Below, piece after piece: positions 3,931 to 14,254 of a DNA stretch of 63,765 bases. The first letter of the stretch is position 1; every line of letters starts with the position of its first letter. The notes under the pieces were generated by a model. The model saw only the letters and a list, made by a program, of their open reading frames with translations, did no database searches and was not told the origin of the DNA. The stretch covers positions 6,659-70,423 of the forward strand of contig CAZJLO010000001.1 in assembly GCA_964547105.1 (NCBI GenBank), read 5' to 3'. This stretch comes from an uncultured Thermotogae bacterium (GTDB taxonomy: Bacteria > Bipolaricaulota > Bipolaricaulia > UBA7950 > UBA9294). The translations under genes were made by a program, and so were the position numbers.

Positions 3931-3998
3931 GAAGGCTCGGCAAACCCAACCCCTGCGCGCCGGCAGGGCCGGCCACGACAACCTAGGAGACTTGGAAG

Positions 3999-4919
3999 AT
4001 GGACATCACAGCACAACGACTTGACGGCATCTTTCCGCCAATCCCGACGCCGTTTGATTCCGCTCACGAGTTCGCACCGGATCCGCTGGCGCAAAACATC
4101 GCGTGGTGGATACGTCAAGGGGTCCAGGGGATCGTCGTGCTTGGGTCAAACGGAGAAGCAATCCACCTAACCGACACCGAGCGGACAGCCGTTGTCTCCG
4201 CGGCACGATCCGCTCTCGGCGATGGGCAGCTGCTTGTCGCGGGAACAGGTGCTTTGTCCACCCGCCACACGATCGCTCTCACCGCCGCCGCCGCCGCCGC
4301 CGGTGCCGATGCCGTCCTTGTTCTGCCGCCGTTCTACTACCGCACCCAGATGACGGATCAAGCGATCGTCCGCCACTTCCGCGCCGTCGCCGACGCATCG
4401 CCGGTGCCGGTTTTGCTCTACAACATGCCACGATGCACGGGAATCGACCTTTCGCTCGACTTGGTGTCGGCCCTCGCCGAGCACGAGAACATCTGGGGGA
4501 TGAAGGAGTCCGGCGGGAATTTGGCCAAGTTGGCGTCAATCCGCGCGGCAACATCGCCGTCTTTTCGCCTTCTCGCCGGCTCCGCCGGGTTCCTGCTGCC
4601 ATCCCTTACCGTCGGTGCCACCGGAGGAATCATCGCCCTCGCCAACCTCGCTCCGGCGAAGTGTGTCGCGTTGTACCGTCATGGCATCAAGGGAGACATC
4701 GATCCCGCAAGGCGTCTTCAGCTCGCGCTCACGCCGCTGAATACGGCGGTGACTTCCCGGTGGGGCGTTCCGGCACTCAAAGCATCGCTCGATCTCCTTG
4801 GTCTCTACGGCGGACCCGTTCGCTTGCCGCTTCTTCCTGCAACGACCGCCCAGATTGAAACACTCCGTCCATTGCTCGTTCAAGCTGGTCTCGTGACCGC
4901 AGAGGAAAGGATCCCCTAA
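3999..4919 (+). CDS. DHDPS-family aldolase, 4-hydroxy-2-oxoglutarate aldolase (HOGA)-like
   Basis: GIFPPIPTPF, GSNGE (instead of DapA GTTGE), catalytic Tyr (LYNMP), Schiff-base Lys (GMKESGG), 'LAGSAGFLLP' as in HOGA1. Confidence 0.8.
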   Translation: MDITAQRLDGIFPPIPTPFDSAHEFAPDPLAQNIAWWIRQGVQGIVVLGSNGEAIHLTDTERTAVVSAARSALGDGQLLVAGTGALSTRHTIALTAAAAAAGADAVLVLPPFYYRTQMTDQAIVRHFRAVADASPVPVLLYNMPRCTGIDLSLDLVSALAEHENIWGMKESGGNLAKLASIRAATSPSFRLLAGSAGFLLPSLTVGATGGIIALANLAPAKCVALYRHGIKGDIDPARRLQLALTPLNTAVTSRWGVPALKASLDLLGLYGGPVRLPLLPATTAQIETLRPLLVQAGLVTAEERIP

Positions 4920-6100
4920 TGCACAGAAAAGGCCGATCACTGCTGATGATTCCCGGACCGATCGAATTCGAGCCCGAAGTCCTTCAAGCTCTGGGCGCGC
5001 CCACGACAAGCCATGTCTCCCCAGGGTTTATCGGAACGTTCGGTCGCGTCCTCGAGCAAATGAGAGATGTATGGGTCTCCCCTTCCGGCCAGCCGTTCGT
5101 GTTGGCCGGTTCAGGAACGCTGGCCATGGATATGGCCGGAGCCAACCTCATCGAGCCGGGCGATCGCGCACTGGTGCTCGTCACCGGTGTGTTCGGCGAG
5201 CGGTTCGTCGATCTTCTTGGGCGATACGGCGCCGACGTCACCGCGCTCCGGGCGCCGGTTGGCGAAGCGGTTGAGATGAGCGAGGTGGAGGCCGCGTTGG
5301 CCGCGGCGTCCTACAAGGTGATGACGCTCACGCATGTCGATACGTCAACCGGTGTCCGCAGCGATGCCCGCGCGTTCGGAGACCTCGGACGGAAGCACGG
5401 CGTCCTCACCGTGTTGGATGGGGTTTGCTCGGTGGCGGGTGAAAAGATCCTTCAGGAGGAATGGGGAATCGATGTCGTTCTGACAGCATCGCAGAAGGCA
5501 ATCGGCGTCCCCCCGGGGCTGGCGCTGCTCGTCGCTTCGCCGAAGGCAATGGATGCGTTCCGGAACCGCACCACCCAAGTGGCCAACTACTACGCCGACT
5601 GGGCGAAGTGGCTGCCGATCATGATGGCGTATGAAAAGCGTACGCCAAGCTACTTCGGAACACCACCGGTGAATCTGATCGCAGCGCTCGCCGTCAGTCT
5701 CGATCAGATCCTTGATGAGGGGATGGAGCTACGGTTCGAACGGCACCGCCGCCTTGCCCACGCGTTTCAGATCGGTGTTGAAGCGCTGGGCTTGAACCAT
5801 GTCCCGTTGTCCGCGCGGGATCGAGCCGTCACCCTGTCTGCGATGTACATCCCCGAATCGGCGGATGGTGCATCGTTGCGCTCCGACATGGCTCGCCAGG
5901 GAATCATCGTCGCCGGCGGTCTCCATCCGGAGATCCGCGAGAGGACCATTCGTGTCGGCCATATGGGAGCGGTCGATTCCGCGGACATCCTCGGAACACT
6001 GGGCGCTTTGGAGCACGCACTTGTCGCAATGGGAGTTGCGATCCAGCCTGGAGCCGGGGTGCTTGCGGGGCAACAGGCGCTGGCGCCTTGCTGCAGTTAG
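4919..6100 (+). CDS. Class-V PLP aminotransferase, alanine:glyoxylate / serine:pyruvate aminotransferase family
   Basis: LLMIPGP start, SGT motif, HVDTSTG, DGVCS, PLP Lys in ASQKAIG, RVGHMG; TAATG overlap with the aldolase. Confidence 0.88.
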   Translation: MHRKGRSLLMIPGPIEFEPEVLQALGAPTTSHVSPGFIGTFGRVLEQMRDVWVSPSGQPFVLAGSGTLAMDMAGANLIEPGDRALVLVTGVFGERFVDLLGRYGADVTALRAPVGEAVEMSEVEAALAAASYKVMTLTHVDTSTGVRSDARAFGDLGRKHGVLTVLDGVCSVAGEKILQEEWGIDVVLTASQKAIGVPPGLALLVASPKAMDAFRNRTTQVANYYADWAKWLPIMMAYEKRTPSYFGTPPVNLIAALAVSLDQILDEGMELRFERHRRLAHAFQIGVEALGLNHVPLSARDRAVTLSAMYIPESADGASLRSDMARQGIIVAGGLHPEIRERTIRVGHMGAVDSADILGTLGALEHALVAMGVAIQPGAGVLAGQQALAPCCS

Positions 6101-6132: not shown

Positions 6133-6138
6133 GTGCTC

Positions 6139-7887
6139 ATGGCTAGTCGGCGGTGGCTGCTCGTGTGCTTCGCGTTTGCGTTTTCATGTCTGCTGCTGTC
6201 CGCGACAGGCACAGCGTCGTCTTCATCAGGTGACACCGCTCCCGAATCGGTGACGTTCACTTCGGGGCAGGTTGTTCGCGTTGAGCACAGCGCAGTTGCT
6301 GCCGCTCATCCGGAAGCGTCCGCCGCAGGGATCGAGATTCTGATGCACGGCGGGAACGCCGTCGATGCGGCAATTGCCACAGCATTTGCGCTTGCCGTGG
6401 TGGAACCGGAGGCATCAGGGCTCGGCGGTGGAGGCTTTATGGTCATCTACGATGCGGCAACCGGAATGTCCACGGCCGTCAATTATCGCGAAACGGCACC
6501 TGGGGCGACGATCGAGACAATGTTTTCCATCGGCGGCAACGGCTTCCCCGGCCTATGGGACGCCCCTTCCGATACGATCGAACAAGCCCAGCGGATGAGG
6601 TATGGCGGTGCAGCCGTCGGCGTTCCGAGAACCGTTGCCGGGCTCCTTGCAGCCCACGACGCGTACGGCCGCCTCCCTCGCTCCGCCGTGTTGGCCCCGG
6701 CAATTCGGCTTGCCCAAGAGGGATTCACCGTAAGCAAGACGCTGTACGCCGCAATCCTCAATATCTACGACATCCTGCTTTCCGAGGAGATCCTCGCCGC
6801 CGTGTTTCTCAACGATTACCTGCCGTACGAGCCGGGGGAGAAGATGCCAAGGCCGGACCTCGGCGCGACGCTCGAGCGCATTTCCGCGGAAGGAGCCGCC
6901 GTCTTTTACTCCGGAGACATGGGGATCGCGATTGCCGATGCCGTGCAGCAGGCGGGGGGGATGCTCACTGCCGAGGATTTGGAGACGGTCGTGGTCGATG
7001 TGGAGCGACCGATCTCAACGACGTATGGCGGAATGACGTTGATCGGCGCCGGTCTCCCGGCGGGGACGCTGTCCGTGTTCGAGACGCTCCAGATCCTGTC
7101 CTTCTTGGACTTGAGTTCCGCTTCGCCGGGAAACGCCCCGGCGATTCACCAGATCGTCGAGGCGACGAAGCTCGCGTTTTCCGACCGCTTTGCCTTCCTC
7201 GGCGATCCGGCGTTTGTCGATGTGCCGGTGGATCTTCTCCTATCTTCGGAGTGGGCCGTCGAGCGGGCTGGCCGGATCGATCCGTTCCATGCGACGCTCG
7301 ATCCGCCATTCGGAACATGGGATCCGGGGAGCACAACGCATGTGTCGGTCGTGGACGGCGAAGGCAATGCAGTGTCGCTCACCCAGTCGATCGGTTCGTT
7401 CTTCGGTTCGCGCGTCTTTGTCCCCGAACTGGGGATTCTGATGAACAACACCATGGCTGATTTCGATCCGGTTCCGGGCCGGGCCAACAGCGTTGCTCCG
7501 GGCAAGGCTCCGTTGAGCAGCATGTCCCCGCTCCTCGTGTTCGACGGGGGAGATCTCCGTTTCGCTCTCGGCACACCCGGAGGGACAAGGATTACGAGCA
7601 CGATGGTGCAGTTGATCGTCGATCTGGTGGATTGGGATCTCTCACCGGAAGTTGCGGTCAGCCAACCACGGTTCCACAGCACCGGCAGGACGGTCGAACT
7701 GGAGTCGCCCGTCCCGCAAACCGTCATCGGAGACCTGATAGATCTCGGCCATCCAGTCGAAATCAGGAATGAGCTTGACCTCTACTTCGGCGGAGTTCAG
7801 CTCGTGGAGGTTGTGAACTCGGAAGAAGGTCGGCAGTTGGTCGGCATCGCCGATCCACGACGCGCGGGCCGCGCCGCCGGCTACTGA
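6139..7887 (+). CDS. ggt: Gamma-glutamyltransferase (exported), copy 1
   Basis: Signal peptide; [19 protein letters not shown]; nucleophile in GSTTHVS; SSMSP and GTPGG oxyanion motifs; DPRR at C-terminus. ORF-track start 6133 is GTG. Confidence 0.93.
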
Positions 7888-7995
7888 TGACGGCCTTGAT
7901 GGGAGGCCGTGCTGGATGAGCAGGGAAAGAGTCTGCCACAAGATGTCCGTTCGCATCCGATCGGTTCAAGCGGACGGGCCGTAAAGGAGGTTTGT

Positions 7996-9702
7996 ATGCG
8001 TAGTCGCATGAAGTATCGGGGCATCGCTTCCGTTCTCGTTCTTGTCGTCGGTCTGTTCGCATGGACGGCAATGGCGGAGCAAGTTGCCACAAGCACGGAA
8101 GGCATGGTGGCGACCGCTCACGAATTGGCGGCGGAAGCCGGAGCGGAGATTCTGGCAATGGGCGGGAACGCGATTGACGCCGCGGTGGCGGCGGCGTTCG
8201 CGATCACTGTTGTGGAACCGAATGCATCAAGCCTCGGCGGGGAAGGCTACATGGTGATTAGTCTCGCGGACGGCCGCGATCTGGCGATCGACTACAGATC
8301 CACCGCTCCGGGACACATTACCTACGAAGACGACAACGATGAGCCGCGCTACGGCGCCGAAGCAACGTGCGTTCCAGGTGTTGTCGCGGGATTGACTCTC
8401 GCCCTTGAGGAGTATGGAACCATGACGTTGGCTGAGGTGATGGCCCCGGCGATCCGGCTCGCCCGAGACGGATTCCCGTTGGATCAGGTCCTCTACGACA
8501 ACCTCTCCAACCTCTACGGCTACACCGACAGCGGAACCGATCCGATCGTCGGCCCGGTGTATTTCCCGGATGGGTTCATTCCCGATGTCGGTTCCGTGCT
8601 TGTCCAGGAAGACTTGGCGCACGCGCTTGCGTTGATCGCGAGCGAAGGGCCATCCGTGTTCTATCGCGGCGAGATTGCTCTCGCCATCGAGGAGACCACG
8701 GATGGATTCTTGCGCTATGAGGACCTGCAGCGCTATCAGGCAGTCATTCGCGACCCCGTGATCAGTGAGTACCGGGGGTACGAAGTGATCGGAACCCCGC
8801 CGAATGTCGCTGGCATCACGGTGGCCGAAGCCCTCAACATCCTCGACAACTTCGATCTGTCCCCGTTCACTTGGGACAACACAACAGCGATCCATATCAT
8901 TGCCGAAGCGCTGAAGCTGGCATCGGCCGATCGATTGCCGTATGTCGGAGATCCTGATTTCTACGATGTTCCATTGGAGGGACTGCTTTCGGAGGAATAC
9001 GCGGCTGCACGAGCGTCGCTGATCAGCCTTGACAGCGCGATCATGCCGACCAACTCCACCCCGAAAGGCAATCCATACCTGTACATGGCAGTTGGTGAGC
9101 CCGTCGCCGTGGAAGATGAGGTCTACTCGCCATCGACCACACAACTCAGCATTCTTGACCGCGATGGAAATGCGGTCAGCATTACGCAGACCCTTTCCAG
9201 CTTCTGGGGATCACGTTTGATGGTTCCCGGATACGGATTCTTCATCAACGACGAACTCCACAATTTCAATGATTACAACCCGGACAATCTTGCCGACGTC
9301 AACGTTCACCAGCCGTTCAAGCGGCCGCGTACGGTGATTGCACCGACCATCGTCCGCGACCCGGCAGGCGAGGTGTTCATGGTGGTCGGAACACCTGGAG
9401 CTGGATATATCCCGTCCTCGGTTGTGGAAACAATCGTCAATGTCATCGATTTCGGGATGACGCTTGAAGACGCAATCCGGACCCCAAAATTCTGCAGCCG
9501 GGTGTCGTATAGGGAGCTGCGGATGGAGGGAGGATATCCTCAGGACACTCTGGATGCCCTCGCCGCCTTGGGACACAACGTCAGAGCTGATTACGGCCAA
9601 CTCGTTTCGACGTTTGGCGGCATCAACGCCATCCTCGTCGAGGACGGGGTGATGACGGGCGTGGGGTCGTTCCGCCGCGATGGTGGCGCAGCGAGCCCCT
9701 AA
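7996..9702 (+). CDS. Gamma-glutamyltransferase family protein (exported), copy 2, divergent active site
   Basis: SD AAGGAGG before ATG 7996; signal peptide; GGNAIDAA, SSLGGEG, DYR; nucleophile in PSTTQLS; KRPRTVIAP and GTPGA replace SSM and PGG. Confidence 0.88.
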   Translation: MRSRMKYRGIASVLVLVVGLFAWTAMAEQVATSTEGMVATAHELAAEAGAEILAMGGNAIDAAVAAAFAITVVEPNASSLGGEGYMVISLADGRDLAIDYRSTAPGHITYEDDNDEPRYGAEATCVPGVVAGLTLALEEYGTMTLAEVMAPAIRLARDGFPLDQVLYDNLSNLYGYTDSGTDPIVGPVYFPDGFIPDVGSVLVQEDLAHALALIASEGPSVFYRGEIALAIEETTDGFLRYEDLQRYQAVIRDPVISEYRGYEVIGTPPNVAGITVAEALNILDNFDLSPFTWDNTTAIHIIAEALKLASADRLPYVGDPDFYDVPLEGLLSEEYAAARASLISLDSAIMPTNSTPKGNPYLYMAVGEPVAVEDEVYSPSTTQLSILDRDGNAVSITQTLSSFWGSRLMVPGYGFFINDELHNFNDYNPDNLADVNVHQPFKRPRTVIAPTIVRDPAGEVFMVVGTPGAGYIPSSVVETIVNVIDFGMTLEDAIRTPKFCSRVSYRELRMEGGYPQDTLDALAALGHNVRADYGQLVSTFGGINAILVEDGVMTGVGSFRRDGGAASP

Positions 9703-9717
9703 TCCATTAGCATGCAT

Positions 9718-9752
9718 GCACCCGGTGTTCGGTCATTGCCCACACCGGGTGC
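9718..9752 (+). terminator. Stable hairpin between ggt2 and the DUF6305 gene (terminator, attenuator or processing stem)
   Basis: GCACCCGGTGT / ACACCGGGTGC perfect 11-bp stem, 13-nt loop, followed by CATTTCTT. Confidence 0.45.
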
Positions 9753-9775
9753 CATTTCTTCAGAAGGGAGACAAC

Positions 9776-10399
9776 ATGAAATATAGACTGGGATGGATGC
9801 TGATTGTCTTGCTCTTCGTGAGCGCAGGGGCCGCGATTGGCCAAGAAGCGGAGGAGGCGGCTGCGCCGGAGACATTCGCTGCTCCCGTTGTGATCGTCTC
9901 GGTCGGACAGAGCGCCGGAGCACAGCAGGCCAGGGTCCTCGCCATCCGGGCGGGACTGGACTACGTGTTCGAGCAGCGACCCGAGTCTTCGATTCTGGAA
10001 GGAAGTCAAACGCTGATTCTGGTCATGGGAGCAAGCAGCAAAGGCCTCGGGGCAGCCGGCGTCGATATTGACGGCGAGATTGCCTGGGCCGTCGATTTGG
10101 TTGCCAGAGCTCGCGAGCTGGAGATGAAGATCATCGCGATGCACATCGAGGGGGGAGCACGCCGTGGTTCGACAAGCGATCAGATCATCCTTGCGATCAC
10201 GCCCCTCGCTGACTACATCGTCGTCAAGGGGGCAACGCCTGGCGTCGAATGGATCGAATCCGAAGAAGCCGACGCCAACGCCGATGGCTTGTTCTCGACG
10301 ATTGCGATCGAGAACGAGATCGGAATCACGTACATCGCGAAGACGTTGGATGGCGTCGAGGTTCTGATGGATCTCTTCGAGATCGAACCCACCGAGTAG
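9776..10399 (+). CDS. DUF6305-family exported protein
   Basis: Signal peptide; motifs 'SVGQS', 'LVMGASSKGLGAAG.D...E', 'IAMHIEGGARRG..SD' recognised as DUF6305. Confidence 0.75.
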   Translation: MKYRLGWMLIVLLFVSAGAAIGQEAEEAAAPETFAAPVVIVSVGQSAGAQQARVLAIRAGLDYVFEQRPESSILEGSQTLILVMGASSKGLGAAGVDIDGEIAWAVDLVARARELEMKIIAMHIEGGARRGSTSDQIILAITPLADYIVVKGATPGVEWIESEEADANADGLFSTIAIENEIGITYIAKTLDGVEVLMDLFEIEPTE

Positions 10400-10420
10400 A
10401 CCACCAGGAAAGGGTAATAA

Positions 10421-11476
10421 ATGGCACGCCGACGAACTCGAGTTCTTGTTGTCTTTATTCTGATGATTGCTTCCTTGGCGGTGCTCGGCGTCGCCGACGA
10501 GCCGCTATCACACGATATCCGACCCGGATATGGCGTCACGGACGTCCGCTGGCTGAGCGACTACTTCCAGCCGCTACGAGACACTGCCGGAGACACGCCG
10601 GTCTACATCCTAGAAGGCGAGCAGTCCGGCGGAGTGTTCCTTCTTCTTGGCGGAACCCATGCCAACGAGATCGCGGGAATCATGGCCGCAACACTGGTTG
10701 TCGAGCGCGGCGTGGCCACGCAGGGGACGGTCATCGTCATCCCTCACGCCAACAACAGCGCCGCCAAACAGAATTCCGGCACGTACAACGCAAACACGCC
10801 TCAGTGGTTTGAACTCACCACCGCAAGTGGTGAAGTGCGCAGGTTTCACTATGGCGATCGCCGAACACAGCCCGAAGACCAGCAGCCGGACCCGGATACG
10901 TTCGTCCACTTCCCATCCGGGATCGAATTCGCGGGGGACGAGGCAAGGAACCTGAACCGCAACCATCCTGGCAAACCCGACGGCACGTTGACCCAGCAAA
11001 TCAGCTACGCCTTGTTCCAACTCGCGGAGTCAGAGAATGTCGGCATCGTCGTCGACATGCACGAGTCATCGCTGACGAGCAGTCTGGCGTATACGTTGGT
11101 GTGCCACCCGCGCGCCCTGGTGGTCGGGGCGTTTGCGATTCTCGATCTGGAGCTGGGAGGGATTGCCCTCAAGCAGGAAGAGTCGCGTCAAGAGTACTAC
11201 GGGCTCAGCCATCGCGAATTCGGTGACAGAACGGGCGCACTTGCATTTCTGATCGAATCACCGAACCCCGGCCAGGAGGGGGGCGAACAAGCTCCCGATG
11301 TGATCAACGATCCGCGCGCTCCGTTGTCGACCCGCGTGCATCTTCAGATGGCGACCGTTCAGGCGATCCTATCCAATCATGGATTGCTGGGAGAAAGCGA
11401 AGATTCAATCGCCCTCTCTTTTCCATTTGACCTTGATGAACTCGTCGGGGCCGATCTCGGAGCGTACCTGAGGTGA
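10421..11476 (+). CDS. Succinylglutamate desuccinylase/aspartoacylase (M14-like Zn hydrolase), exported
   Basis: Signal peptide; GGTHANE (HxxE), NLNR, VDMHES, catalytic Glu in FLIES. Confidence 0.85.
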   Translation: MARRRTRVLVVFILMIASLAVLGVADEPLSHDIRPGYGVTDVRWLSDYFQPLRDTAGDTPVYILEGEQSGGVFLLLGGTHANEIAGIMAATLVVERGVATQGTVIVIPHANNSAAKQNSGTYNANTPQWFELTTASGEVRRFHYGDRRTQPEDQQPDPDTFVHFPSGIEFAGDEARNLNRNHPGKPDGTLTQQISYALFQLAESENVGIVVDMHESSLTSSLAYTLVCHPRALVVGAFAILDLELGGIALKQEESRQEYYGLSHREFGDRTGALAFLIESPNPGQEGGEQAPDVINDPRAPLSTRVHLQMATVQAILSNHGLLGESEDSIALSFPFDLDELVGADLGAYLR

Positions 11477-12867
11477 GCGCCGTTCCCATCGAACTATGGG
11501 TGTTCGTGGCGATGGTCGGCGGGTTTGCCCTCGCGACGTTCGCCGCCAAGCTTCCGGTGTCCGTTTCGTTGGCGGCGGCCGCCATTCTCGGGGCGCTTGT
11601 CGCCGGAAGCGGCTTCCCGCTTCGCCAATTCGTCGAGGGGACAATGGGGTACCTGGACACGCTGTTGATCATCGCCACGGCGATGATCTTCATGCGCATG
11701 ATCCAGGCATCGGGGCTGCTCGACACGATAGCTCACCACATCGTAGTCGTGTTTCGAAACCGCCCGGCGACGCTGCTCGTGCTGATGATGCTGTTTGCGA
11801 TGTCCGCGGGAATGATCACCGGCTCGTCAACCGCAGCTGTCTTGACTACGGGCGCAATCGCCGCGCCGGTGTTCATGTCGATTGGAATCACCCGCGAGCG
11901 GACAGGAGCAATTATCGCCATGGCCGGGATCCTAGGAATGATTGCGCCGCCGGTCAATATCCCGGTGATGATCATCGGCGGCGGGGTGGACATGCCGTAC
12001 ATCGGCTTCGGCCTTCCTCTGCTTGCCCTGACGATTCCTTTGGCGATTGTGATCGTTCTCGCACTCGGATTCGGGGCGGCACGGCGTACGACGATTAACA
12101 TCGACGCTCTCCCCCCCTCCTACCACCGCCAGTATGGGTGGAAGCTGTATCTTCCGTTGATTTTGCTTGTGCTGCTGATCGGCGCCGAACGCGCATTCCC
12201 GCAGTTCTTTCCGTCGCTCGGTATGCCGCTTGTGTTTACGATCTGCGCCCTCCTCACGCCATTCACCGGTCGACGTCTGCATCCGCTTGTGGTTTCCAGA
12301 GACGCGGTGAAGGCCGCCCTCCCGGTGATGGGAATTCTCGCCGGCGTGGGGATGTTTCTTCAGATCATGGCGCTGACCGGAGCACGCGGATTCATCGTTT
12401 CGCTACTCACGGGGCTTCCTACCGGGTGGCTGTATCTGAGCATCGCCGTGAGCATGCCGCTGTTCGGCGCCGTCTCCGCATACGGATCGGCTTCGATCCT
12501 CGGAGTCCCGTTCGTGTTGTCGCTGCTCGGCACCAGTGAGATCATCGTCGCTTCGTCGCTGTCGTTGGTTGCCGCAATGGGAGATCTGATGCCGCCGACG
12601 GCACTCGCCGGATTGTTCGCCGCCAAAGTAGTCGGGCAACCCAACTATGTCCGCGTGCTCAAGCATTGTCTCGCTCCCGCGGCACTGACGATCGCGGTCA
12701 GTATCGGATACATCGCCACAGCAAGTTTCTGGGATCGCCTGTTCGGCACGGAGAGCACGGGCTTGTGGCTCGCAGTGATCGCCGGATTCATCGCCACGGT
12801 CGTTACCATCGTGTTGGTTCTTGATCGATGGGCGCATCGCGGCCGGAAGCAGGAGGTGGCGTCGTGA
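11473..12867 (+). CDS. DctM/IT-superfamily permease (TRAP large-subunit-like)
   Basis: About 11-12 hydrophobic segments; 'GMITGSSTAA', 'GMIAPPVNIP', 'GDLMPPTA' helical-hairpin motifs; GTGA overlap with upstream gene. Confidence 0.8.
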   Translation: MSAVPIELWVFVAMVGGFALATFAAKLPVSVSLAAAAILGALVAGSGFPLRQFVEGTMGYLDTLLIIATAMIFMRMIQASGLLDTIAHHIVVVFRNRPATLLVLMMLFAMSAGMITGSSTAAVLTTGAIAAPVFMSIGITRERTGAIIAMAGILGMIAPPVNIPVMIIGGGVDMPYIGFGLPLLALTIPLAIVIVLALGFGAARRTTINIDALPPSYHRQYGWKLYLPLILLVLLIGAERAFPQFFPSLGMPLVFTICALLTPFTGRRLHPLVVSRDAVKAALPVMGILAGVGMFLQIMALTGARGFIVSLLTGLPTGWLYLSIAVSMPLFGAVSAYGSASILGVPFVLSLLGTSEIIVASSLSLVAAMGDLMPPTALAGLFAAKVVGQPNYVRVLKHCLAPAALTIAVSIGYIATASFWDRLFGTESTGLWLAVIAGFIATVVTIVLVLDRWAHRGRKQEVAS

Positions 12868-13007
12868 CCTTTCTGTACCAGGCCATCACCGCAGGAGTGA
12901 TCGTCTTTGCCATATGGAATCTGTTCCGGGAACGTCGACTTGCGGAGCAAATGGGGATCGCCCTGGTGCTGATCCCTCTTCTGTTGAGGGTGTTGATGAT
13001 CAAGTGA
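12864..13007 (+). CDS. 47-aa two-helix membrane microprotein (missing from ORF track)
   Basis: GTG 12864 with SD AGGAGG; MTFLYQAITAGVIVFAIWNLFRERRLAEQMGIALVLIPLLLRVLMIK; GTGA overlaps at both ends fill the gap exactly. Confidence 0.8.
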   Translation: MTFLYQAITAGVIVFAIWNLFRERRLAEQMGIALVLIPLLLRVLMIK

Positions 13008-14254
13008 GCGCCAAGACTAGGACCAGGATCGGAATCAGGTCCGGGCTCAAGGACAACGCGAACGAGAAGATAATGTCCCCGGCCCCAACCGAAGAGAGCA
13101 ACGGCAAAGGTAGATCTTGGATCGCAGCGGGCGCGCTGATCGCCGTCGTTGCTGCAGCTGTCGCGATCTCGGCGCGCGAGTTTGTCGCGATGTGGGAAGA
13201 TCCACCGATTTACCCGGGACCTGGGGTCACGGAGCAGTTCATGCTGAGCAGCATCGCGCCGGAGTTGGCAGGATCGGCCGCAGATACAGAAGTCTACGTC
13301 CTTGGTGGCGACCTCCCCGGTGGAGCGCTCCTGATTCTCGGAGGAACGCATCCCAACGAACCGGCTTCTTCGCTGACCGCGATCACGATCATCGAGAACG
13401 CGGTCGTCAGCGAAGGGCGGCTGCTGGTGATCCCGCGGGCGAACCACAGTGCATTCACATGCACCGATCCGCAGGAAGGCGCGCCACAAACGTATCTCAT
13501 CGAGACACCTGGAGGAGACCGTCTGTTCCGATATGGAAGCCGAGCGACCAATCCGATCGATCAATGGCCCGATCCCGTCATCTATGTGGGGTCTTCCGGT
13601 CAAGCGCTGGCCGGAGCCGAAGTGCGGAATTTGAATCGGTCCTACCCTGGAGATTCCGGGGGATACTTGACCGAGAAGCTCGCGGCGTCAATTCTCGATT
13701 TGATTCGGACAGAGAACGTTGATCTTGCCATCGACTTGCACGAGGCGTCTCCTGAGTATCCGGTGATCAATGCAATCGTCGCCCACGAGAATGCGTTGCC
13801 GCTCGCCGTGGAAGCGGCGCTCTTCTTGGAATTCGAGGGCATTCAAATCGGCGTTGAAGCCTCGCCGATCAATCTGCGCGGCCTGAGTCATCGTGAATGG
13901 GGAGACGCCACCGACACACTTGCCCTGCTGATTGAAAGTACCAATCCAGCCCAGGGACGCCTCCGCGGAGCGATCAGCTCCGAGTTGATCCTCGAAGGCG
14001 CCGATCCCTACTACATCCGCGCCGCGGAACACGGACTCCTCTACGTCCCGTTTACCGATGCGGGACATCCGATCGAAGAGCGTGTCGGACGCCACCTTGA
14101 GTCGATCGCGATGTTGACGGAGATTTACAGCTCTTATCATCGGGATCGCCCGGTGTCGGTTTCCGGACTTCCCACCCTTTCGGACCTACTGGCGCGGGGA
14201 CTCGGAGAATATCTGGATCCTCCACCCCGGGAAGCGGATGATTCTACGCGGTGA
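13004..14254 (+). CDS. Succinylglutamate desuccinylase/aspartoacylase (M14-like Zn hydrolase), membrane-anchored, copy 2
   Basis: N-terminal TM (WIAAGALIAVVAAAVAISA); GGTHPNE, NLNRSYP, IDLHEA, LLIES. Start GTG 13004 (overlap) or ATG 13073. Confidence 0.85.
   Translation: MSAKTRTRIGIRSGLKDNANEKIMSPAPTEESNGKGRSWIAAGALIAVVAAAVAISAREFVAMWEDPPIYPGPGVTEQFMLSSIAPELAGSAADTEVYVLGGDLPGGALLILGGTHPNEPASSLTAITIIENAVVSEGRLLVIPRANHSAFTCTDPQEGAPQTYLIETPGGDRLFRYGSRATNPIDQWPDPVIYVGSSGQALAGAEVRNLNRSYPGDSGGYLTEKLAASILDLIRTENVDLAIDLHEASPEYPVINAIVAHENALPLAVEAALFLEFEGIQIGVEASPINLRGLSHREWGDATDTLALLIESTNPAQGRLRGAISSELILEGADPYYIRAAEHGLLYVPFTDAGHPIEERVGRHLESIAMLTEIYSSYHRDRPVSVSGLPTLSDLLARGLGEYLDPPPREADDSTR

Follow-up and report, generated by a model that had tools for sequence, protein, structure and literature searches.

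The window analysed here, a stretch of 63,765 nucleotides from the genome of an uncultured Bipolaricaulota bacterium (G000; about 2.3 Mb, 91% complete), carries two overlapping genes on its forward strand. The upstream gene (3999 to 4919; PF00701) encodes a class I aldolase of 306 residues with the DHDPS/NAL fold that belongs to the HOGA1 clade, and is preceded by a Shine–Dalgarno sequence, AGGAG (3985 to 3989), 9 nt 5' of its ATG. The downstream gene (4919 to 6100) encodes a class V PLP-dependent aminotransferase of 393 residues, of the yeast Agx1/Sulfolobus serine:pyruvate type. The first-pass annotation of this DNA had pointed out that the aldolase contains GSNGE and LAGSAGF rather than the GTTGE of DapA and that the TAA ending its gene overlaps the start ATG of a class V aminotransferase gene. 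Both observations were borne out. GSNGE, the pyruvate-carboxylate binding loop, spans residues 49–53 (4143 to 4157); LAGSAGF, which contains the equivalent of HOGA1 Gly222, spans residues 192–198 (4572 to 4592). Stop and start codons share one base in TAATG (4917 to 4921), and the downstream frame was assigned to PF00266. From this junction we infer translational coupling of the two genes.

A scan for promoters and terminators gave 6 and 15 sites, where 4.6 and 11.0 were expected by chance, and hence no usable operon boundary. On the same strand, 32 nt downstream of the pair, begins a cluster (6133 to 14254) of two tandem ggt genes, a DUF6305 gene, two genes for AstE/AspA-like hydrolases and a gene for a DctM-like transporter, located between the aminotransferase gene and pdxS. 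Apart from G000, a single near-identical locus (L116/L117) has the ggt cluster beside the pair; even the congener G001 lacks it at this position. A functional tie of the pair to this cluster, or to the NAD kinase gene upstream, was rejected because both neighbours are confined to one genus.

When compared with solved structures in the PDB, the aldolase scored 237 bits against human HOGA1, 149 bits against an uncharacterised Thermus protein and 146 bits against the best DapA. An AlphaFold model (pLDDT 94.2) had the HOGA1 structures 3s5o and 3s5n as its top Foldseek matches (rmsd 1.3–1.4), with E values of 7.6e-33 for HOGA1 and 4.4e-25 for other DHDPS/NAL members. In human HOGA1, residues S77, N78, Y140, Y168, K196, S198 and G222 serve catalysis and the binding of 4-hydroxy-2-oxoglutarate (HOG; PMC3188589). 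These align with S50, N51, Y113, Y141, K169, S171 and G194 of the aldolase. Present, then, are the HOGA1-type Schiff-base lysine (K169) with the Tyr/Ser/Tyr relay (Y141, S50, Y113) and, as N51, S171 and G194, the HOG-binding set Asn78/Ser198/Gly222. The HOG-site residues are nearly invariant within the clade, N51 being found in 119 and S171 in 117 of 123 members. Cys146 occupies the position of DapA Arg138 and HOGA1 Asn173 and varies (C/N/F) across the clade; PMC3188589 notes that Asn173 distinguishes HOGA1 from DHDPS and does not count it as catalytic. The scores and the retained HOG-binding residues uphold the HOGA1-like identity proposed at first pass, and we regard HOG aldolase activity, as predicted from the sequence, as very probable. 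Many homologs of the protein are already named HOG aldolase by JGI, and homologs also bear the name of the host phylum, Bipolaricaulota.

The best PDB matches of the aminotransferase were yeast Agx1 (2bkw; 245 bits) and the Sulfolobus serine:pyruvate aminotransferase (3zrp; 236 bits), the latter a broad-specificity enzyme. Human AGT1 scored only 149 bits, and the protein is therefore not an AGXT ortholog. It contains the catalytic residues of class V enzymes, namely the PLP lysine K193, D167 and the carboxylate-binding R345, and also Y245 and T248. BhcA, PhnW, pyridoxamine-pyruvate transaminase and SerC were rejected as identities, with scores below the NCBIfam cut-offs (221/650, 146/361, 186/600 and 39/402 bits, respectively). 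We conclude that the enzyme is likely to accept glyoxylate and that the donor could be alanine, serine or 4-hydroxyglutamate.

How widely is the pair conserved? Counted at E ≤ 1e-55, the aldolase is present in 46 of 184 Bipolaricaulota genomes, and 44 of the 46 belong to the family of the host. The earlier proposal had been made dependent on synteny of the pair in relatives. The aminotransferase gene lies directly downstream of the aldolase gene in 44 of the 46 aldolase-bearing genomes, which are kin and do not count as independent; only G013 and, at a greater distance, G057 differ. Set against this regularity, the entire genome of G000 has just four comparable class V genes, and the pairing is not due to chance. 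Three genomes (G012, G024 and G028) have kept the aminotransferase without the aldolase. Elsewhere in G000, outside the window, an Eda/KDPG-KHG-type aldolase gene is found together with a class V gene, an IclR-like regulator gene and two AOR genes (C11:33469–35357).

Outside Bipolaricaulota, a class V gene is present in 23 of 74 aldolase loci. The aldolase-linked aminotransferases fall into two deep clades (branches 2.16 and 2.32; support 100/99 each). Members of the yeast-Agx1-type clade are encoded beside the aldolase in Bipolaricaulota, Bacteroidales and Anaerolineae, and members of the Anabaena/human-type clade in Ignavibacteria and Fermentithermobacillaceae. That glyoxylate-type aminotransferases were recruited twice, separately, argues for a release of glyoxylate by the aldolase.

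Operons in other phyla strongly support a link between the aldolase clade and hydroxyproline (Hyp), as judged from gene content. In 11 loci, the gene of a monofunctional proline dehydrogenase (ProDH) lies directly upstream of the aldolase gene, and the aldolases of these loci form one clade (support 98). The underlying aldolase tree was a quick version with many open forks, from which human HOGA1 was left out; it was used only for this clade and for scattered links to HypD, whose gene adjoins the aldolase gene in three separate lineages. Five of the 11 ProDH loci also encode a P5C dehydrogenase, in ProDH-HOGA-AT-P5CDH clusters (L071, L082, L083, L096 and L101), and two of them (L082 and L083) include HypD and an Xaa-Pro peptidase as well.

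All 11 HOGA-linked ProDHs have leucine at the position of the gatekeeper tyrosine. The ProDHs of Thermus and Deinococcus have tyrosine here, and the tyrosine in the Thermus sequence RAYVPYG is presumably the equivalent of Tyr540 of Escherichia coli PutA. Tyr540 is reported to enforce proline over Hyp (as cited in PMC3718742). A second ProDH encoded elsewhere keeps the gatekeeper tyrosine in all five genomes tested. In Ignavibacteria, the HOGA-adjacent ProDH reads RVLISYG (L082:4534–5457, L086, L083, L104 and L096) and the housekeeping copy RIYVPFG (controls L280–L284); among relatives in this group, a GSNGE aldolase gene adjoins 17/17 of the second-type ProDH copies as opposed to 0/13 housekeeping-type loci. 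These patterns are suggestive of the Leu-type Ignavibacteria ProDH beside HOGA as a candidate bacterial Hyp dehydrogenase. Leu-type ProDHs also occur without HOGA in 38 metagenome loci, and the leucine is thus a clade trait, not a proof of Hyp use. As a strict marker of HOGA it was rejected, holding in Ignavibacteria and failing more widely.

We then turn to the upper steps in the host. The first-pass annotation had viewed the pair as a possible Hyp-to-glycine module and had pointed to HypD, a Hyp epimerase or dehydrogenase and a separate dapA as genes to look for. The HOGA identity, the synteny and the Hyp operons of other phyla speak for the module. The canonical upper enzymes speak against it: ProDH (PF01619) was found neither in G000 nor in any of the 37 genomes of family f1, and aldehyde dehydrogenase/P5CDH (PF00171) and a Hyp epimerase or proline racemase were likewise not found in the 91% complete G000. 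There is also no separate dapA, the aldolase being the sole PF00701 product of G000. HypD is encoded (L156, C57:3190–5538; 1149 bits, above cut-off) together with its activase, and ProC lies apart from it at C3:82880. Since HypD is present, the pair does not replace this enzyme and is at most a parallel branch. HypD was rejected as part of the aldolase module itself, as its product P5C bypasses HOG and the two do not co-occur within the family (10/22 versus 7/15 genomes). The glycyl radical enzyme, along with ten AOR-family genes, fits an anaerobic host. The P-protein of the glycine cleavage system is also encoded.

G000 encodes two archaeal-type L-ProDH-like alpha/beta Fe-S flavoenzymes (PDH in the following), on C19 (7295–10578) and C5 (49224–52464) and thus on contigs other than that of the pair. 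They are orthologs, at 63–69% identity, of the PDH subunits encoded near the pair in relatives. The best PDB match of the beta subunit is the L-proline dehydrogenase of Pyrococcus horikoshii (1y56), and the alpha subunit carries a fused N-terminal domain, as has been described for archaeal L-ProDH. The second copy ends an operon (L157, C5:40088–52464) with genes for a PuuR-like regulator, a PepT-like peptidase and a dipeptide ABC transporter. In G007 (L145), the genes for a regulator, PDH alpha, PDH beta, the aldolase and the aminotransferase are contiguous; in G004, G029, G153 and G155, the PDH genes are 3–7.5 kb from the pair. These five are the only ones among about 44 loci with such proximity. 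The PDH beta gene adjoins the aminotransferase gene in G024, where the aldolase is absent. Genes for PDH alpha/beta adjoin HypD genes in G008, G030 and G017, and genes of the Cys/Cys proline-racemase family in five genomes, with Xaa-Pro peptidases nearby too. A gene for a uracil-DNA-glycosylase-like protein (UDG) comes after that of PDH beta in some genera and after that of the aminotransferase in others (L145, L147, L151, L178, L182 and L217), hinting at an ancestral order PDHa-PDHb-HOGA-AT-UDG.

The PDH beta subunit does not track the aldolase (19/22 versus 12/15 genomes) and is present in family f6, in which the aldolase is found in 1 of 50 genomes. Being nearly universal in the family of the host and present in a mostly aldolase-free one, the complex is probably a general proline dehydrogenase, and we discarded its genome-level co-occurrence with the aldolase as uninformative. 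Its substrate is unreadable from homology, since the flavoenzyme family includes opine and D-Hyp dehydrogenases (PMC4575208). Hyp oxidation by the PDH complex is a putative activity.

The mechanism that we propose builds on family placement, active-site residues, pairing and conservation, which come from sequence and structure; the activities and upper steps are derived from these and are put conditionally. HOG would form a Schiff base with K169 of the aldolase and be cleaved to pyruvate and glyoxylate, and the coupled aminotransferase would convert the reactive glyoxylate to glycine, which could enter the glycine cleavage system. We have good confidence in the overall conversion of HOG to pyruvate and glycine by the predicted pair. 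Further up, Hyp would be oxidised to 3-hydroxy-P5C by the alpha/beta flavoenzyme (C19, with the second copy on C5). As no NAD-dependent aldehyde dehydrogenase was found in the whole of G000, one of the ten tungsten-type AORs would have to oxidise the semialdehyde to 4-hydroxyglutamate. Transamination of 4-hydroxyglutamate would then yield HOG, possibly by the same class V aminotransferase: the Ignavibacteria clusters held no recognisable class I aminotransferase, and the class V enzyme may therefore also deaminate 4-hydroxyglutamate, which would close a loop of two enzymes. HOG could equally well be formed by a housekeeping AspAT, as it is in mammals. HypD and ProC would form a branch of their own, bypassing HOG. 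On balance, we slightly favour the pair as the lower half of an animal-type Hyp route, fed by oxidative Hyp breakdown parallel to HypD, and we lean, with similar reserve, towards Hyp as the main source of HOG in the host.

The pair could also handle glyoxylate independently of Hyp. Glyoxylate from glycolate, purine or glycine oxidation would be converted to glycine by the aminotransferase, and the aldolase would condense glyoxylate with pyruvate to HOG (on to malate) or clear HOG arising in side reactions. Consistent with this, GlcDEF-like genes lie beside the aldolase gene in three deltaproteobacterial loci and 2-hydroxyacid dehydrogenase genes in nine loci, a weak GlcD/GlcF-like pair (27% identity) is encoded on C2 of G000, and malate synthase was not found in this genome. 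The three genomes with the aminotransferase but no aldolase point in the same direction; in one of them (G024) it adjoins PDH beta, and in another (G028) it lies by malic enzyme and fumarase-type genes. Furthermore, 42 of 80 cross-phylum aldolase loci are without recognised gene context. However, the most informative aldolase operons are those of Hyp and proline, genes for proline racemase, Xaa-Pro peptidase and HypD accompany the flavoenzyme that is linked to the pair, and a glyoxylate reductase beside HOGA fits the animal route too (GRHPR). We consider Hyp-independent glyoxylate handling rather unlikely. We think it still less likely that the first step falls to the aminotransferase, its substrate being another 4-hydroxy amino acid or imported 4-hydroxyglutamate (freed, for instance, by the gamma-glutamyltransferases encoded downstream), with the aldolase then splitting the 4-hydroxy-2-oxo acid so formed into pyruvate and an aldehyde that an AOR oxidises. 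The closely following ggt, DUF6305, AstE-like and DctM-like genes, the Sulfolobus serine:pyruvate enzyme as second PDB match and the variability of position 146 would all suit such a scheme, but the ggt cluster lies next to the pair only in G000 and L116/L117, and N51 and S171, which bind the distal carboxylate and 4-OH of HOG, are conserved.

A function of the aldolase as DHDPS in lysine synthesis, as KDG aldolase or as the Pyr4H2C deaminase of the bacterial D-Hyp route appears highly improbable. The absence of any other PF00701 gene from G000 would favour it, as would the rank of dapA as top NCBIfam model and the presence of D-HypDH in the linked flavoenzyme family. Yet the dapA score of 176 bits is below the TIGR00674 cut-off of 206, Ser-Asn replaces Thr44-Thr45 and Arg138 is missing, and we rejected DapA on these grounds. 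The scores for KDG aldolase, NanA, KdgD and HpaI are also below the NCBIfam cut-offs (102/390, 131/281, 120/278 and 142/397, respectively), and these identities were rejected too. That dapB (PF01113) was not found in the 91% complete G000 makes a role in lysine synthesis unlikely, and the lack of a recognisable epimerase in this genome speaks against the deaminase. Moreover, where relatives have a cluster of racemase, dehydrogenase and DHDPS-like genes, it employs another paralog, which has GSTGE and is about 30% identical. Such clusters (L233–L237, in G024, G015, G003, G020 and G033) consist of genes for a racemase/epimerase, a multi-subunit Fe-S flavo-dehydrogenase and a DHDPS-like protein with GSTGE and GW. 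At 214 bits, this paralog exceeds the dapA cut-off of 206, yet has threonine at the Arg138 position; it probably belongs, as an enzyme so far unrecognised, to a D-Hyp-type route of anaerobes.

The preferred reading, an animal-type Hyp route running alongside HypD, can be extended to a third microbial Hyp route in two builds, one with Leu-type ProDH and P5CDH (Ignavibacteria), the other oxygen-independent, with an Fe-S flavoenzyme and a tungsten AOR (Bipolaricaulota). In both, the aminotransferase would take 4-hydroxyglutamate as amino donor for glyoxylate and so close a loop, the two enzymes together converting 4-hydroxyglutamate, in net terms, to pyruvate and glycine. This extension is tentative, and we hold it to be rather doubtful. 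Already known are the two individual chemistries and the database labels of homologs as HOG aldolases; new here are a ProDH paralog of the Leu type, found in complete-looking operons of Ignavibacteria, and, for Bipolaricaulota, the connection with the flavoenzyme. A literature search, with most subscription journals outside its coverage, found no report of the animal-type Hyp route in bacteria. If the proposal is true, anaerobes of sediments and digesters can break down the Hyp of collagen or plant wall proteins to pyruvate and glycine, alongside HypD. The operons also supply candidate bacterial ProDHs with a preference for Hyp, as well as model proteins from bacteria for the enzyme of primary hyperoxaluria type 3.

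Among known enzymes, human HOGA1 (3s5n/3s5o; PMC3188589) resembles the aldolase closely (43% identity, TM-score 0.93, all seven active-site residues kept), whereas the bacterial protein has cysteine for Asn173, lacks a targeting peptide and is encoded by a gene overlapping that of the aminotransferase. The latter enzyme shares the motifs SH.SP, AGSGT, HVDTST, TASQK and YF.TPP with yeast Agx1 and the Sulfolobus enzyme, and is less close to human AGT1, as the low score shows. The beta-hydroxyaspartate cycle also pairs a class V glyoxylate aminotransferase, the aspartate:glyoxylate enzyme BhcA, with an aldolase. The aldolase of that cycle is PLP-dependent; the HOGA-like partner here has the DHDPS fold, and the aminotransferase falls far short of the BhcA cut-off. 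As to pathways, a 2018 review (PMC6219649) lists two characterised microbial Hyp routes, via HypD and via HypE/D-HypDH/Pyr4H2C deaminase, and gives the glyoxylate/pyruvate route as mammalian. The two microbial routes have the same likely substrate as the pair, and HypD is encoded in G000, but neither route yields HOG or glyoxylate and neither uses the two genes. The mammalian pathway proceeds by PRODH2, P5CDH, GOT2, HOGA1 and AGT (PMC8779045). The pair corresponds to its last two steps and, in Ignavibacteria, most of the gene set is clustered; unlike mammals, G000 is without the ProDH and P5CDH families, for which the archaeal-type flavoenzyme and an AOR are candidate substitutes.
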